From Candidatus Latescibacterota bacterium (lineage in GTDB: Bacteria > Latescibacterota > UBA2968 > GCA-2709665): a stretch of 64,000 nt of DNA. Of this stretch, positions 19,901 to 25,900 are shown piece by piece. The DNA lies in the NCBI GenBank assembly GCA_965205485.1, contig OZ242180.1, positions 4,864,001 through 4,928,000 on the forward strand, given 5' to 3'. Made by a program: the position numbers. Numbering within the stretch: position 1 is the stretch's first letter; each line of letters starts with the position of its first letter.

Positions 19901-22900
19901 CGGAAGGCCGGGAGCTCGTGTATCAGTTCGAAGTGGACCAGGTGCCCTCCTTCGACGGTTCCTTTCTGCAGAGTTCGGACGACGAGCCGATCCTGTTCGA
20001 AGCCATCAAGCCGGTTGTGATCGCCATCGGACTCGCCGTCGGCCTGGTCTCGTTCGTGGTTCTGTCCGTCCTGGGCCTGCCGGTCCTGCTCATCTTCGGA
20101 TACATACGGAGTCTGACGAGCATTCCCCACGTGATGATCACCGAGATCATCGGTGCGCTCCTCGCGCGGTACTATTTCTGGAAGCGCTTCGGCAGACAGC
20201 AATGGCGCCTCTACGCGGCGGTGTTGTACGTCGGATTCTCGGTGGGCATGTCCCTGGTGGGCATGGCCTCCGTCTCCATTGCAATGATACAAAAGGCCGT
20301 CTCGGTACTGTTGTTCTGAGCATTGGCTTTGGTTCCGCCCGCATCTATTATGTCGGGTTGAATTGTCGCATCCGGACCGTTCGATCAAACACACCAGGAC
20401 GGCAGCATGTCAGGCGCGATCGGCATGATCGAAGTCGAAGGCGTTGCCGGGATTATTCTCGCGTCGGACGCTGCTTGCAAGGCCGCCGGAGTGGACCTCC
20501 TGGGCTGGGAGTCCATCGGCGGATTCACCACAGTCTTTCTCGGCGGATCCATCAGCAGGGTGGCAACCGCGCTCAAGAGCGGCGAACAAGCAGCCAGAGA
20601 GGTGGCGGGGCACGTGGTGGCGGCGCCGATGACACACCCGGAACCCGCCTGCCGGGATTACGTTTCGAATGAAATCGCCACGGAGCGGCGCACGCCGACC
20701 GGCGCGCTGGGTCTGATCGAGACGAGAGGATACGGCGCGCACGTCACCGCCAACGACAATATGGTGAAGGCGGCCGACGTCCGGGTCTTCAACGTGCTCA
20801 CCGTACACAACCGGGTGGTCTGCTCCCTTATACTTGGGGACGTGGCTTCCTTGACCGAGGCCCTGCCCGCGGGTCGCGCGAGCGTCGAGACAGGAGAGAA
20901 TTTCCTCGGCGCCGCCCTCATCCCCAAGCCCCTGCCCGACGTCCTGCGGGCATTCGGCCCCTGAGCGCCGTCGTGTCCGCACGAAATCATGCCCTGGGGA
21001 TTCTGGAGACCCGCGGCATGACCGCGCTTGTCGCGGCCCTGGACGCCATGCTGAAAACCGTGGACGTCAGGGTCCTGGGGCGTCACGGCGTTGGATCCGG
21101 CTGGCTGACCGTCGTGATCGAAGGCGTCGTTTCGGACGTGGAGGCCGCCATTCGGATCGGGCGATCCGAGGCCGAGAACCACGGCGAGTTGATCAGCGCC
21201 GACGTGATCGCCGGCCCGGCCCCGGGCGCCCTCGCGTCGATGCCGCACATGGCGGGCGCGGGCACGTCGAAACCGGTCGGCTCGCAGGCGATGGGCATCC
21301 TCGAAACACGCGGAATGGTACCCCTCATCCGCGGCGCCGACGCCATGATCAAGAGCGCGCCCGTCCACGTCGCCGGCTGGACTTCCATTGGCGGCGCGCT
21401 GGTTCATCTCGTGGTCCGGGGCGATATATCCTCGGTCCAGACTGCCCTTCAGACCGGTAAAGCGTGTGCGGATGAAGTCGGGGAAGTCTACGCGACCCTG
21501 GCGATTCCCAGCCCTGAAGCGGGTATCGCCCCATTGCTTCCGGATCCGCCGATTTCAAACGGGCGCAAGGAAGACGCCGGGGCGCTCGGTATTCTTGAAA
21601 CAACGGGTTACGTGTCCGCGGTCGGCGGATCGGACGCGATGGTCAAAGCGGCCGACGTCGACCTTGTGCGCCTCGTCATCGCCAGCGGAGGCCGGGTGGA
21701 CGCGCTGGTGAAAGGCGAACTCGACGCGGTCCAGGCGGCCGTGGAAGCCGGTATCGATGGCGCGCGGGAGGCCGGGGAACTGAATGCCTCCTGTGTCGTT
21801 TCCCGCCCGTCTTCCGACATCATGGCCTGCTTCGGCGGGAACACCGTCAGGAATACGTCAGGCTTGCATCAGGCGATGGGACTGATCGAAACGCGCAGCA
21901 CCGTGGCCCTGGTCAAAGCCGTGGATCAGATGTTGAAGTCCGCGGACGTGGAATACGAGGGCCGGTACAAAGTGGGGTACTTTCTCACGGCAAGCGTCGT
22001 CCGGGGAGACGTCGGCGCGGTACGTGCCGCCCTGAATGTCGGCGCCGGGGAAGCGGAGAGGTACGGCGAACTGGTGTCTGCACACCTTATACCCCATCCC
22101 TATCCGGCGCTGGAAGAACGGCTGATCCACTGATCGATCGCTGAATACCCGGGAATGATCGATGATCCGTATTGACGATGCGGTTGTTACCGAACAATTG
22201 CTCAAGGACAGACTGGGCGCTGAGCGGGAAGTCGAAATCTGCCCGCGGGCGAAGCTGACGCCGCTGGCGCTGGACTATCTGGCGGCCAACCGGGTCCAGG
22301 TATCCAGAAGAGAGGCGGCGGCCGCCGGTCCGCGGACTTCAGCGCCGGCCGCCCGTCGGAAATCCGGCGAACGGAAAGAATTCAAGGGCATCTTCTGCCC
22401 CAATATCGTCATTTTCGACAGCAATGACCGGATCAACTACGCGGAAATGGAGCGATATGTCAACTGGCTCATCGAAGCCGGCATCCACGGGTTGTATCCC
22501 AATGGCAGCACGGGCGAATTCGTGCGTCTTTCCAGCGACGAGCGCAAGGAGGTCGTGCGCCTGGTCACGAACGTCAACCGTGGGCGCGTGCCCGTTCTGG
22601 CCGGCGCGAGCGAAGCCAACCTCCGCGACGTGCTCAGAATGAGCGAATACTACGCCGGCATCGACGTCGACGCCATTTCTCTCGTACCCCCGTACTATTA
22701 CGAGATCTCGGACACCAGCCTCTTCGAGTACTTCGCTGAGATCGCGAGACAGACGCCTCTCGACGTCCTGTTATACAATATCCCCCAGTTCACGCAGGAA
22801 CTCACGCTGGACATCATGGAACAGTTGCTTCCCTTCGAGCGAATCATGGGTACCAAAGATTCCAGCCGGGATATGCCGCGGCTGATCAACACCATGCATC

Positions 22901-25900
22901 GGCTGCGGGCGCAGCGCCCAGACTACGTGGTCCTGGTCGGCTGCGAGGAAATCCTGTGTCCATCCATTATGATGGGCGCCAGCGGGGGCACGATCGCGAC
23001 CTCCGGCATCATTCCCGAGGTCATTGTGGATATCTATGAAAAGACGCTTGCCGGCGACCTCGAGCGTGCACGCGGCATGCAATGCCGCATCCTGGACCTC
23101 ATCAACCTGATGCTGCTGGGTGTGAACTTTCCGGAGGGATTCAAAACCGGTGTGGCCGTGCGCGGATTCGACGTCGGACCTCCGCGGCAGGCCATGAGCG
23201 ACGAGGAAAAGGAATATCTCCTCAAGCTTGAGTCCCAGATCAGCTGCATCCTCAAGGATATGGGTTACGACGTGAATGGTGCGCGGGCGTGTCCCGTAAC
23301 CGACCTGCCGCCAATTGTCGACCGTACCTGACGCGACGGGTTGTTCCGCGGGGGCAATACCCGGAACCCGCCATGATTACATCAACTGAAGTCCTTAACG
23401 GAGAACCTCCATGGCTGAAAACGCGCAGCGGCACAACCTCGTGGACCCGTTCAACCTGGATGCCGGCGACGGCTACGTCTGGCTGAAAGGCAACCTCCAC
23501 TCCCACACGACGAACTCCGACGGCAAGGCGTCGCCCCAGGAACGTCTGGACGGCTACGTGAGCCAGGGGTACGACTTCCTTTGTCTCTCGGACCACTACC
23601 GGATCACCCGGATCGATTCCGTGGATTGTCCGGACGACTTCGTGCTCATTCAGGGCGCCGAACTGCATCCGGACAATCCGTTCGGCGGACAGAAACACCA
23701 TTTTCTCTGCCTGAACATCCACGAGGACCTGGACTCGGAGAACATGCCGCCCCAGCACGTGATCGACGCGGTTCAGGAACAGGGGGGCAGCACGTGGCTT
23801 GCCCACCCGTACTGGAGTTCGGTCAACATCCTGAGGGACACCGTTCCGCTCACGGGATTTGCCGGCGTGGAGGTATTCAACACAACGTGCCGACGCGCGG
23901 GCAGAGGGGAATCCGGCGTTCATTGGGACGACTGGATGGACGTGGAGAACAGGCTGTATCCCGCCCTGGCCAACGACGACTCCCACGCCCTCGAATCGGA
24001 TCATCACGATACCTATGGGGGCTGGACGATGGTACGCGTGAAGGACCGGTCTCCAGGGGCCATTCTCGACGCGCTCGAACGGGGCGCGAGCTATTCGAGC
24101 ACCGGCGCCCAGATTCGGAACATCACCCTGCGAAGAAGCGACGAGGAGAAACGGCCGGTCGAGGCCGCCGTCGAATGCTCCGAGGCCAGGTGTATCCTGG
24201 CCGTTTGCGATACGTTCGGAACCGAATACAGGAATTCCGGCAAATCCTTTACGAGCGCCACGTTCAACCTGCGGCCGGGCGCACGCTGGGTACGTTTCGA
24301 AGTGATCGGAACGGACGGCTCGAAAGCCTGGTCCAACCCGTTCGACCTCACCTGAGGCTGGCGTCGCGATGGGACTCATCCTGACACCCGAACAGGTGGC
24401 AGCGTACCGCAAGGACGGTTACTTACTGGTACCGGATCTGCTGACGCCGCCTGAAATCGACGCCTTCCTGGAAGCGCAGGCGGAAACGGTGGCGCCGGAA
24501 ATCCTGGAACTCGGCCTGCGCAGGCACACCGCGGATCCGCAATGGCGTTACCTGGCGTCGCATCCCCGTGTCTCCGGAATCGCGTCTCTGCTGCTGCAGG
24601 GTCCGGCGATGATCGTCCAGACCATGTACATGGAAAAGGCGCCGCGCGGGGGCACGGGTATCGCGCTCCATCAGGACGCACACTATATCAGGAACGAACC
24701 CGGCACGCTCATGGCGTGCTGGCTTGCGTTGAGCGATACCGACAGCAGCAACGGCGGGCTCTGCGTCGCCGCCGGCAGCCACCTGGCCCCCCTCCGGAAT
24801 ACCCGTCCCCCTCGAGACAGCAGCGAACACGCCTCCTGGGTGAAAGATTACGCCATGCGAGGACCCGACGGCACGGAGTGGGCCGAAACCATGCACTCGC
24901 ACGAGGTCGCCGGCGTAAGCCGCGATGAACTCACCTTCCTTACGGTTCCGCGAGGATCGGGCGTCTTCTTTACCGGCAGAACCATCCACGGCTCTTTCGC
25001 GAACCGGTCCATGGGCAGGCCCCGGCTTGCATTCGCCATCCACTATGTGAGAGAGGGTACGTGGGTGTTTCGCCGGGACATCCAGGACCTCGCGCCGGCA
25101 AACTGAAGGGACCTCCACCATGAAACGCGTTGCAAAGCCGGAAGGCGAGTACAATATCGTCATCGAAGACGTCCCCGTACCTGAAGTCTCGCCCACGGAA
25201 GTGCTCATCCGGGCGGAGTGCAGTCTGATCAGCCGCGGTTCCGAGATCTGGCGGCGTTATATCCGTCCCGAAGCCATCGACCATCAAGCCATGGGCTACT
25301 CGTTCGTGGGAGACGTTGTCGAGGTCGGCGCCCGCGTGGACGGCTTCTCCATCGGCGACCGTGTGGCGGCTCTTGCGCCGCACGCGGAGTACGTGGCCGT
25401 CGAAGTCGTGGACTCACCCCACCGGGCCCCGGTTGTGCATCTTCCGGACGCGGTCTCCTCGGAAGCCGCGACGTTCTGGCCGCTGAGCACCAGTTCCGTT
25501 CTCTGGATGCGCGAAATCGAGGCCCGCAAGGAAGACACGGTGGCTATACTGGGTCAGGGTCTCGTCGGCTCGATCTGCATGCAGGCGCTGAACGCGGAAG
25601 TGAACCCCCGGGTGATCGCTGTCGACGCGCTTCCCCTCCGGTGCGAACTGGCCGCAAGCCTGGGGGCGGACCACGTGGTGGACGCATCGCGCGAGGATCC
25701 CGTAAGGGCCGTCAAAGATCTGACGGGCGGCGCAGGCGTGGAGATCGCGGTGGAGGCGGTGGGCGGCCGCGCCGGGGCGGCCGCGTTCGCGCAGGCGCAG
25801 GATATGGTGAAACGAAAAGGCCTGATCCAGGTGATCGGCCTGTATGAGGACGAGCCACTACCGCTCGACTCCGGAAAGATCCAGGGCCGGCGGATTGTCG

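Follow-up and report, generated by a model that had tools for sequence, protein, structure and literature searches.

Three adjacent genes on the forward strand of the window, a 64,000-nucleotide stretch of a Candidatus Latescibacterota genome (contig OZ242180.1, positions 4,864,001 to 4,928,000), encode two bacterial microcompartment (BMC) shell proteins and an enzyme (Table 1). The first shell protein, Ta, carries two BMC domains (20416-20622 and 20704-20931), and the second, Q4, carries four in one polypeptide. None of the six is interrupted by a stop codon, in keeping with the single four-domain chain proposed in the first-pass annotation. The GTG start suggested there for Q4 also holds up in relatives, which have a start codon at the equivalent position: 71 of 72 loci have a spacing of -13 to +14 nt from the Ta stop to the Q4 start, and the two genes overlap in 48 of the 72. 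Ta and Q4 occupy different reading frames, so there is no read-through from one into the other; translational coupling across the short gap is probable. A contig from a second study spans 20300-22715 unbroken, and both its indels fall outside the coding frames. A promoter-like site at 20323-20351 was discarded because such sites are no more frequent than chance predicts (2 found against 1.8 expected). The membrane and peptidase-permease genes upstream are linked in just 15 of 80 clustered sequences and are not counted into the system.

Table 1. Features of the Ta-Q4-lyase gene cluster (window positions)
Feature	Position	Strand	Remarks
Ta, two-domain BMC shell protein, 185 aa	20407..20964	+	2 PF00936 stretches; ring positions A and B
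Ta-Q4 gap, 8 nt	20965..20972	+	Ta stop to Q4 start
Q4, four-domain BMC shell protein, 386 aa, GTG start	20973..22133	+	4 PF00936 stretches, E 4.7e-77; ring positions C-A-B-C
Q4 domain 1 (D1)	20991..21218	+	free face against Ta domain 2 in model; edge Lys28 in 72/72
Q4 domain 2 (D2)	21288..21515	+	among cross pairs nearest to Ta domain 1
Q4 domain 3 (D3)	21582..21809	+	lineage shared with Ta domain 2; invariant pore-loop Arg241
Q4 domain 4 (D4)	21873..22100	+	free face against Ta domain 1 in model; pore-loop Tyr336 in 96% of 72
Lyase, DapA/DHDPS-superfamily class I aldolase type, 389 aa	22162..23331	+	PF00701 (DHDPS) at residues 74-361; candidate cargo enzyme
Lyase N-terminal domain, about 50 residues	22162..22311	+	common to cysteine-rich MUF2 protein; candidate docking domain

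How widespread is this arrangement? The best 120 of 391 Q4 homologues are 366-424 aa long and 55-92% identical. Among 78 GTDB loci, 72 have the four domains in one frame, five are cut by contig ends, and one (L067) is split 3+1. A single-domain profile was run against 1.84 billion representatives; in the best 150 matches, four BMC stretches occurred in the Q4 cluster alone, and no protein with five or six BMC domains appeared; several with three stretches proved to be truncated Q4 copies rather than a new domain split. A natural six-domain fusion was not found, longer forms of Ta giving three matches among 4200 candidates. One such candidate, P0124, in which Ta1, a partial Ta2, and D1 are interrupted by unrelated sequence, is read as a frameshifted read-through. 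Q4 had been said always to follow a two-domain gene, and Ta indeed lies directly upstream in all 74 of the 78 fetched loci in which the contig reaches that far. In a phylum survey of 168 genomes, Ta is present in 84 and Q4 in 83, all of which also hold Ta; the single Ta-only genome is in 980 contigs, and its Ta match is cut off. One genome (G049) that seems to have lost Ta and Q4 together was left out of the count, since its lyase is cut at a contig start. The correlation of Ta and Q4 distances (r 0.97) is that expected from co-inheritance alone and was not used as evidence.

The three genes had been described as a conserved satellite of a main microcompartment locus elsewhere in the genome. 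This is true of close relatives (L010-L023, with the three genes only) and not of the family overall, as 54 of the 78 loci belong to full microcompartment operons. Within 6 kb upstream, an aldehyde dehydrogenase (AldDH) is encoded in 54 of 78 related loci and PduL in 56. Two further proteins are frequent, namely, Tb, a second two-domain protein of A-B type (56 of 78 loci), and a cysteine-rich protein (58 of 78). Both are absent from this genus, as is the BMC-H protein Hp, and Ta and Q4 remain paired where these three and a second DapA are missing. The main locus (C1:2.637-2.648 Mb) encodes PduL, an AldDH 57 to 59% identical to that of the full loci, three BMC-P proteins, a class II aldolase, an acetate kinase, and a BMC-H protein with a C-terminal extension. 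All 53 genomes of the order have the main-locus AldDH, but just 18 of them have Ta and Q4. The genome also encodes a basal BMC-H; the extended BMC-H falls in the lineage of Ta2 and D3.

To which type does this compartment belong? The label "PVM-like" turns out to be loose, because the gene content also matches the MUF2 or MIC4 type of the BMC catalogue. PVM loci contain a class II aldolase, acetate kinase, PduL, and AldDH together with a DeoR regulator and a lactate/malate dehydrogenase (Axen 2014). The first four are present at the main locus; neither of the last two was seen in the 18 open reading frames scanned of 64 listed. All traits of the MUF2 set, i.e., AldDH and PTAC, a class II aldolase with a C-terminal peptide, a BMC-P triplet, and an extended BMC-H, are found there, although acetate kinase is listed in the catalogue for MIC4, MUF3, and PVM, not MUF2.

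The four-domain protein itself is not beyond the described classes, as had been claimed. The MUF2 entry in supplementary file 4 of the catalogue (Sutter 2021; PMC8217296) already mentions "very unusual quadruple linear fusions" together with the two-domain Ts_hazel and a nearby class I aldolase, and it notes an N-terminal domain common to this pfam00701 enzyme and an uncharacterized cysteine-rich protein. The proteins and lineages are the same as those described here, down to the double (Ts_hazel) and quadruple linear BMC-H fusions, the pfam00701 aldolase with the shared N-terminal domain, and, in relatives, the cysteine-rich protein. CME28_01115, Ts_hazel/MUF2 in the catalogue, adjoins CME28_01110 (P0102), a Q4 homologue; no entry of about 380 aa is among 15 of the 59 "blurple" catalogue rows. 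The 4+2 tile discussed below is not stated in the supplement, which devotes one sentence and no assembly model to the fusions, lacks the words "hetero" and "tandem," and covers 13 loci, compared with 83 genomes here. Unlike the MUF2 loci, this genus has the three genes detached from the main locus and lacks Tb, Hp, and the cysteine-rich protein. The catalogue's main text recognizes only two kinds of hexagonal tile, one-domain chains in hexamers and two-domain chains in trimers, and comparable enzyme-plus-shell satellite modules are described (Sutter 2021). No paper on a 4+2 tile was found in full-text searches covering few subscription papers.

By profile scores, the six domains of Ta and Q4 repeat with period three, resembling a duplicated pair of BMC-T and BMC-H. 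Of the 15 ways to pair them, Ta1 with D2, Ta2 with D3, and D1 with D4 scores highest (359 versus 327 for the next) and takes the first three places among the 15 rate-corrected residuals, and Tb1-Tb2-Hp fits best on D2-D3-D4 (419 versus 357). Plain mean identity, unlike the profile scores, does not show the pattern clearly, and the test is not a blind one, the hypothesis having been framed with the motifs and cross-scores of these data already in view. A tree groups Ta2, D3, and Tb2 with support of 99/96; under a mixture model, the B group alone is well supported. In AU tests, period-2 and other histories are 9 to 18 log-likelihood units worse, yet they are not rejected (p 0.15 to 0.37). The trees thus agree with a period-three history, with its rivals still standing. 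An ABC-ABC gene order would follow from duplication under any assembly, which counts against inferring a tile from order. In one metagenome locus, two BMC genes of three domains each lie side by side, again totaling six; no mapping of this three-domain family onto Ta/Q4 or Tb/Hp positions emerged.

AF2 gave monomer models for Ta (pLDDT 94.3) and Q4 (pLDDT 91.2, pTM 0.89). The top structural match to both is 6ner, a synthetic tandem BMC-H fusion from Haliangium ochraceum (TM 0.81 to 0.92; for Q4, TM to target 0.89 to 0.92). This engineered protein, which we take to be a homotrimer with two identical domains per chain, shares its domain-order direction with both models, whereas PduT and Haliangium BMC-T1 do not. 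These last two, of the BMC-T(s) class (3n79/3pac and 5dih), are likewise non-permuted PF00936 tandem fusions within a hexagonal tile, but they are homotrimers with 3-fold symmetry, and the second domain in the Ta and Q4 models lies on the opposite side (TM 0.39 to 0.46, rmsd 15 to 17 A). Ta has the exactly two non-permuted domains per chain that define the class; Q4 does not.

Do the two proteins fit together? Predicted with alignments, the complex of Q4 and Ta gave ipSAE values of 0.77, 0.79, and 0.79, against 0.00 for the best of the unrelated control proteins, passing a mark reached by 116 of 157 solved pairs and 2 of 215 mismatched pairs, though the pass may reflect likeness to solved BMC hexamers. 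(The first-pass value was 0.54.) The runs have 137 to 140 contacts, agree in at least 95% of them, and place the partner with a pLDDT of 90. In the model, D1 touches Ta2 and D4 touches Ta1, closing the ring as D4-Ta1-Ta2-D1. The tightest modeled contacts involve family-invariant residues (Trp44, Thr46, and Thr310 of Q4; Gly108, Tyr109, Asp117, and Arg136 of Ta). Conservation in Q4 is as high on the free faces as on the inner ones; in Ta, interface residues have no significant excess conservation over the remainder of the protein (p 0.085). Across 72 loci, the edge lysine of the KAA motif is present in 100% of cases in all six domains, and every pore loop carries its own strongly conserved motif, with Arg136 of Ta and Arg241 of Q4 invariant, His134 at 93%, and Tyr336 at 96%, which points to a fixed, selected pore. 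The arginine of the inter-tile PRPH motif is mostly glutamine in four of the six domains.

It is likely that Ta and Q4 form a six-domain pseudohexameric shell tile with a lopsided pore, and we infer that they do so 1:1 in the cell. A 1:1 heterodimeric pseudohexamer was the first-pass proposal, and it is favored by the strict co-occurrence, the ring closure in the model, and the period-three domain pattern. Mixed rings have precedent: the hetero-hexamers of CcmK3/K4, CcmK1/K2, and PduA/PduJ likewise break 6-fold pore symmetry, but they are built of single-domain chains in variable stoichiometry (PMC6788708, PMC12058022), whereas in the proposed tile six different domains would have their order and ratio set by gene fusion. 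The promiscuous mixing of BMC-H paralogues (PMC12058022, PMC6788708) speaks against the 4+2 tile.

What else could the pair be doing? Because such paralogue hetero-hexamers are common (PMC12058022, PMC6788708), the Q4 ring might be completed by two BMC-H proteins (4+1+1), or by Tb where present, with Ta an ordinary homotrimer whose gene is merely co-regulated. The basal and extended BMC-H proteins of this genome could fill positions A and B, and Tb is a widespread A-B protein. This arrangement is nevertheless improbable, as it leaves unexplained both the lack of Ta without Q4 in well-assembled genomes and the near-zero gap between the genes; Tb is missing from this genus, and the modeled Q4-Ta contacts fall where the family is invariant. 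A Q4 homo-oligomer is less probable still. Three chains would supply twelve domains, divisible by six, for a pair of pseudohexamers joined side by side or for two stacked rings, each chain giving two domains to either layer; BMC-T(dp) proteins are known to stack as double trimers (Sutter 2021), and the AU test leaves a period-2 history standing (p 0.19 and 0.15). Against this, the domains of Q4 are near-equally spaced (medians 98, 96, and 97 residues) and lack a long linker that could bridge, the AF2 model places all four, a homo-ring would have to join D4 to D1 (C-C), which departs from the ABC pattern, and the dependence on Ta goes unexplained. Just as remote is the idea that Q4 and Ta have no fixed stoichiometry and are open arcs filled by whatever BMC domains are available, modifying curvature or creating shell defects rather than a dedicated pore. 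A low-level, disorder-introducing role has been proposed for CcmK3/K4 hetero-hexamers (PMC6788708), the changed PRPH motif would suit such a role, and in 35 of the order's 53 genomes the shell manages without Ta and Q4; the six distinct pore-loop motifs argue otherwise.

What of the lyase? The 73-residue N-terminal extension attributed to it is borne out by the start of PF00701, and the small domain within it matches the cysteine-rich MUF2 protein (hhalign probability 97.9, E 4.5e-13). It is the sole copy in this genome. A resemblance to EutQ was set aside, the domain having no PDB match and no Atlas match of 0.9 or more. The nearest solved relative of the enzyme is E. coli YagE (2v8z, E 2.4e-37), a 2-keto-3-deoxy sugar acid aldolase of the DHDPS superfamily; the match is distant, and YagE is without the N-terminal domain. 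The Schiff-base lysine and the tyrosine are in register with YagE, and together with Gly-x-x-Gly-Glu they make up the class I hallmarks. In 71 sequences, Lys232 is conserved in 99%, Tyr205 in 85%, and Ser116 in 100%, and Ser116-Thr117-Gly118-Glu119 is kept in 97 to 100%. From the roles of these residues in the family, we take Lys232 and Tyr205 to be catalytic and the glycine motif to bind pyruvate. DapA proper (4-hydroxy-tetrahydrodipicolinate synthase) was rejected at 141.5 bits against a TIGR00674 cutoff of 206.15, and the protein scores below every NCBIfam cutoff, including NanA, KDG aldolase, HpaI, and KdgD. Its substrate may tentatively be placed among the 2-keto-3-deoxy acids or related 4-hydroxy-2-oxo acids. 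On balance, the lyase seems to be a cargo enzyme of the microcompartment. Against that role, a close orthologue is missing from 7 of the 83 genomes with Q4 (three of them in one or two contigs), no encapsulation helix is obvious on the lyase of this genome, and the helix-bearing protein with the same N-terminal domain is absent here.

The 4+2 tile suggests the following scheme. A gene pair of BMC-T and BMC-H (A-B plus C), still seen as Tb-Hp in most relatives, would have been duplicated in tandem; an H-T-H fusion would then have produced Q4 (C-A-B-C), with the remaining A-B gap filled by Ta. Once co-translated, the two proteins would assemble 1:1 in the ring order Ta1-Ta2-D1-D2-D3-D4, with six differing domains around a pore without true symmetry. 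Retaining its six edge lysines, the tile could insert as a minor facet tile into a class II aldolase metabolosome of MUF2 type, and in this lineage Ta, Q4, and the lyase would be an add-on module to the main locus. The asymmetric pore, with its His, Arg, Tyr, and Ser residues, may admit the anionic substrate of the lyase, which would be cleaved to pyruvate and an aldehyde, the latter passing to the acylating aldehyde dehydrogenase of the main locus. A bolder and rather doubtful extension is a general class of order-fixed heterodimeric tiles (4+2 here, 3+3 in the separate three-domain family, 2x(2+1) for ancestral Tb-Hp) with fully asymmetric, substrate-shaped pores, the 4+2 tile docking its aldolase through the N-terminal domain as a plug-in uptake-and-cleavage module.

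If true, a natural 4+2 tile would offer, in fixed order, six pore and edge positions that are each encoded separately. Substrate selection by the pore would become testable position by position, and engineers would gain a ready-made asymmetric tile. The ABC-ABC pattern proposes an evolutionary route by which such tiles may arise, and it predicts mixed rings for Tb-Hp and for the three-domain proteins.

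The region encodes, in order, a two-domain BMC shell protein (Ta, domains Ta1 and Ta2), a four-domain BMC shell protein (Q4, domains D1 to D4), and a DapA/DHDPS-family lyase. The open reading frames in the table agree with the positions that the first-pass annotation gave for these genes, and it was also right that Q4, read from an upstream GTG, carries four PF00936 domains in a single polypeptide. Six of the eight BMC domains of the genome are thus in Ta and Q4, and the other two are single-domain BMC-H proteins at the main microcompartment locus, with three BMC-P proteins besides. 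Within the genus, 14 of the 15 genomes have the same eight BMC domains.

Features of the region and of related loci
Feature	Location	Strand	Remarks
1511-aa protein with M28 peptidase-like region and FtsX-type permease, then 806-aa hydrophobic protein	window 13239-20319	+	
Ta	window 20407-20964	+	185 aa; two PF00936 domains
Q4	window 20973-22133	+	GTG start 8 nt past the Ta stop; 386 aa; four PF00936 domains
Lyase	window 22162-23331	+	389 aa; DHDPS at residues 74-361
Catabolic gene run	window 23411-29170		CehA/McbA-type metallohydrolase, two PhyH dioxygenases, zinc dehydrogenase, DapF
Enolase-superfamily acid-sugar dehydratase-like gene	within window 23411-29170	minus	below all cut-offs
ThiO-like FAD oxidoreductase and second DapA-like protein	L024 (relative's locus):8863-11008		full operons
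Two adjacent three-domain BMC genes	L088 (relative's locus):1-882 and 886-1827		
Three-domain BMC clusters	P0129-P0136, P0140, P0143, P0150, P0161, P0169, P0190		283-330 aa

Could so long a chain be an assembly artefact? It is not, because homologues are 366-424 aa long (best 120 of 391), the four domains share one frame in 72 of 78 GTDB loci (of the others, 5 are truncated at contig ends and 1 has a 3+1 split), and a second study has a contig that covers window 20300-22715 with no coding indels. A Q4 profile finds a full-length, stop-free match in 77 of 168 genomes of the phylum and partial ones in 6 more, all assemblies of 320-820 contigs. At the split locus (L067:3225-4428), a stop codon with an ATG soon after it lies ahead of domain 4, reflecting either natural fission or an assembly error. 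A one-domain BMC profile orders proteins mostly by how many domains they have; among its top 150 of 1.84 billion representatives, a single cluster has four BMC stretches and no cluster has five or six.

Q4 was said always to follow a two-domain BMC gene, and Ta does lie 5' of it in all 74 loci that reach far enough upstream; in 71 of 72 the distance is between -13 and +14 nt. Among the 168 genomes, 84 have Ta and 83 have Q4, and every one of the 83, which share kinship and are not independent events, also has Ta; the sole Ta-only genome is a 980-contig assembly in which the Ta match is cut.

The description of these genes as a conserved satellite holds for their own lineage, where loci L010-L023 show Ta, Q4, and the lyase only, but not for most other loci, which are full operons. 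Near Q4, the 78 loci encode AldDH (54), PduL (56), a second two-domain BMC protein, Tb (56), the BMC-H protein Hp (56), a cysteine-rich protein (58), a ThiO-like FAD oxidoreductase (59), and a second, highly divergent DapA-like protein (51; Pfam 24.5 bits). Orthologues of Tb, Hp, the cysteine-rich protein, and the second DapA are absent from this genome. Its main locus encodes PduL, BMC-H, three BMC-P, AldDH, class II aldolase, acetate kinase, and an extended BMC-H, and the AldDH is 57-59% identical to that of the full operons; a relative's locus, L009:13181-14590, corresponds to about 2,645,180-2,646,590 of contig C1 here, minus strand. The main-locus AldDH is present in all 53 genomes of the order but Ta and Q4 in only 18, which marks the three genes as an accessory module within a wider metabolosome. 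The catabolic run downstream is not conserved next to Q4 beyond close relatives, and the 806-aa protein upstream has no Pfam or NCBIfam match.

As the first-pass annotation stated, the lyase usually follows Q4, directly so in 72 of 78 loci. A close orthologue is found in 76 of the 83 Q4 genomes; at E 1e-90 it is missing from 7, three of them assembled in one or two contigs. What does it cleave? It scores under the cut-off of every named family, its closest solved structure is YagE, and the Schiff-base residues are kept. Aldol cleavage of 2-keto-3-deoxy-L-fuconate yields pyruvate and L-lactaldehyde, and fuculose-phosphate aldolase makes L-lactaldehyde too (PMC11199699). Since both cleavages give L-lactaldehyde, the lyase is plausibly a second route into the AldDH of the main microcompartment. 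Alternatively, the substrate in full operons could be a 4-hydroxy-2-oxo acid that the FAD oxidoreductase makes from a hydroxy amino acid. The oxidoreductase and the second DapA-like protein, neither of which the catalogue's account of MUF2 names (PMC8217296), are a possible clue to the substrate. Residues 1-50 of the lyase match the cysteine-rich MUF2 protein; because that protein is absent here, the lyase would dock on the shell itself or not at all. Six genomes from two other families of the phylum (G031-G036), which have neither Ta nor Q4, encode lyases that lack the N-terminal domain and match in the catalytic domain alone (47-49% identity); these would be a useful outgroup for assays.

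How do Ta and Q4 fit together? AlphaFold2 models both confidently (Q4, pLDDT 91.2 and pTM 0.89; Ta, 94.3 and 0.91). Both models match the synthetic fusion 6ner (TM 0.81-0.92) and neither resembles PduT or Haliangium BMC-T1 (TM 0.39-0.46, rmsd 15-17 A), which argues that they run in the same direction round the ring. Predicted from 72-row alignments drawn from the same loci, with unrelated proteins as controls, the complex reaches ipSAE 0.77, 0.79, and 0.79 (best control, 0.00), with 137-140 contacts, at least 95% agreement of contacts between runs, and a partner pLDDT of 90. Of the solved pairs, 116 of 157 attain the mark used, against 2 of 215 mismatched ones; with our own alignments these counts are only rough. 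In the model D1 is in contact with Ta2 and D4 with Ta1, which closes the ring. Since BMC hexamers have already been solved, the pass may reflect likeness, and because the controls were unrelated proteins, the score speaks of fit, not preference. The edge lysines of all six domains are invariant, and every pore loop has its own motif, with Arg136 (Ta) and Arg241 (Q4) invariant, His134 at 93%, and Tyr336 at 96%. The modelled interface of Q4 is more conserved than the rest (0.82 versus 0.71, p 0.0008); that of Ta is not significantly so (0.77 versus 0.71, p 0.085). A well-supported reading is that one Q4 and one Ta probably form a 4+2 heterodimeric tile.

The six domains, in the order Ta1-Ta2-D1-D2-D3-D4, repeat with period three. 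Pairing Ta1 with D2, Ta2 with D3, and D1 with D4 tops all 15 pairings (359 versus 327) and accounts for the three highest of 15 rate-corrected residuals. On this pattern Q4 reads as C-A-B-C (letters denoting three domain lineages) and is short of one A-B unit; Ta is just such a unit. In the tree, Ta2, D3, Tb2, and the extended BMC-H group together at 99/96; under a simpler model D1, D4, and Hp do so at 89/92, and the A-position domains form no resolved group. Period-three constraints cost less than 1 log-likelihood unit and four alternatives 9-18, although the AU test rejects no alternative topology (p-AU 0.15-0.37). This pattern is evidence for the tile but no proof of it, as duplication alone gives the same gene order whatever the assembly.

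Tb and Hp travel as an adjacent two-plus-one-domain unit (L024:4607-5491), duplicated jointly in loci L059, L082, and L084; L060 has a second Tb and no Hp. Tb1-Tb2-Hp fits D2-D3-D4 best. The Q4 profile also gives 25 second matches that are interrupted by stops; 24 of them begin at model positions 89-99, all end at 377-380, and judged by position they fit Tb-Hp. Tb-Hp is the likely ancestor of Ta-Q4 and is itself a candidate (2+1)x2 hetero-tile.

Natural BMC proteins with three domains (283-330 aa) form a family of their own, which accounts for 14 clusters in the best 150. Their source names include Elusimicrobiota and Dehalococcoidia, and a full-text literature search did not find the family in print. 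Two of its genes are adjacent at L088, and clusters P0130 and P0135 have matching contig sizes (520,993 and 5,151), which suggests 3+3 heterodimeric tiles.

How much of this is in print? Q4 had been placed beyond the described classes, a claim that does not survive: supplementary file 4 of the 2021 catalogue (PMC8217296), in the part consulted, has Q4, Ta, and the lyase, mentions four-domain proteins in one sentence, and offers no assembly model, and the main-text passages covered do not mention such proteins. Q4 homologue P0102 is CME28_01110, and CME28_01115 is Ts_hazel, a two-domain clade of type MUF2 in the catalogue, which ties the Q4 family directly to MUF2 and means that Q4, its neighbour, and the lyase were already catalogued. 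As far as can be tested, the three genes belong to the MUF2 set. Full-text searches of the open literature found no assembly model for Q4 and Ta. The four-domain protein was thus already known, from a single sentence; what would be new is its reading as part of a 4+2 heterodimeric tile, which an origin by BMC-T plus BMC-H duplication and the 3+3 parallel may extend.
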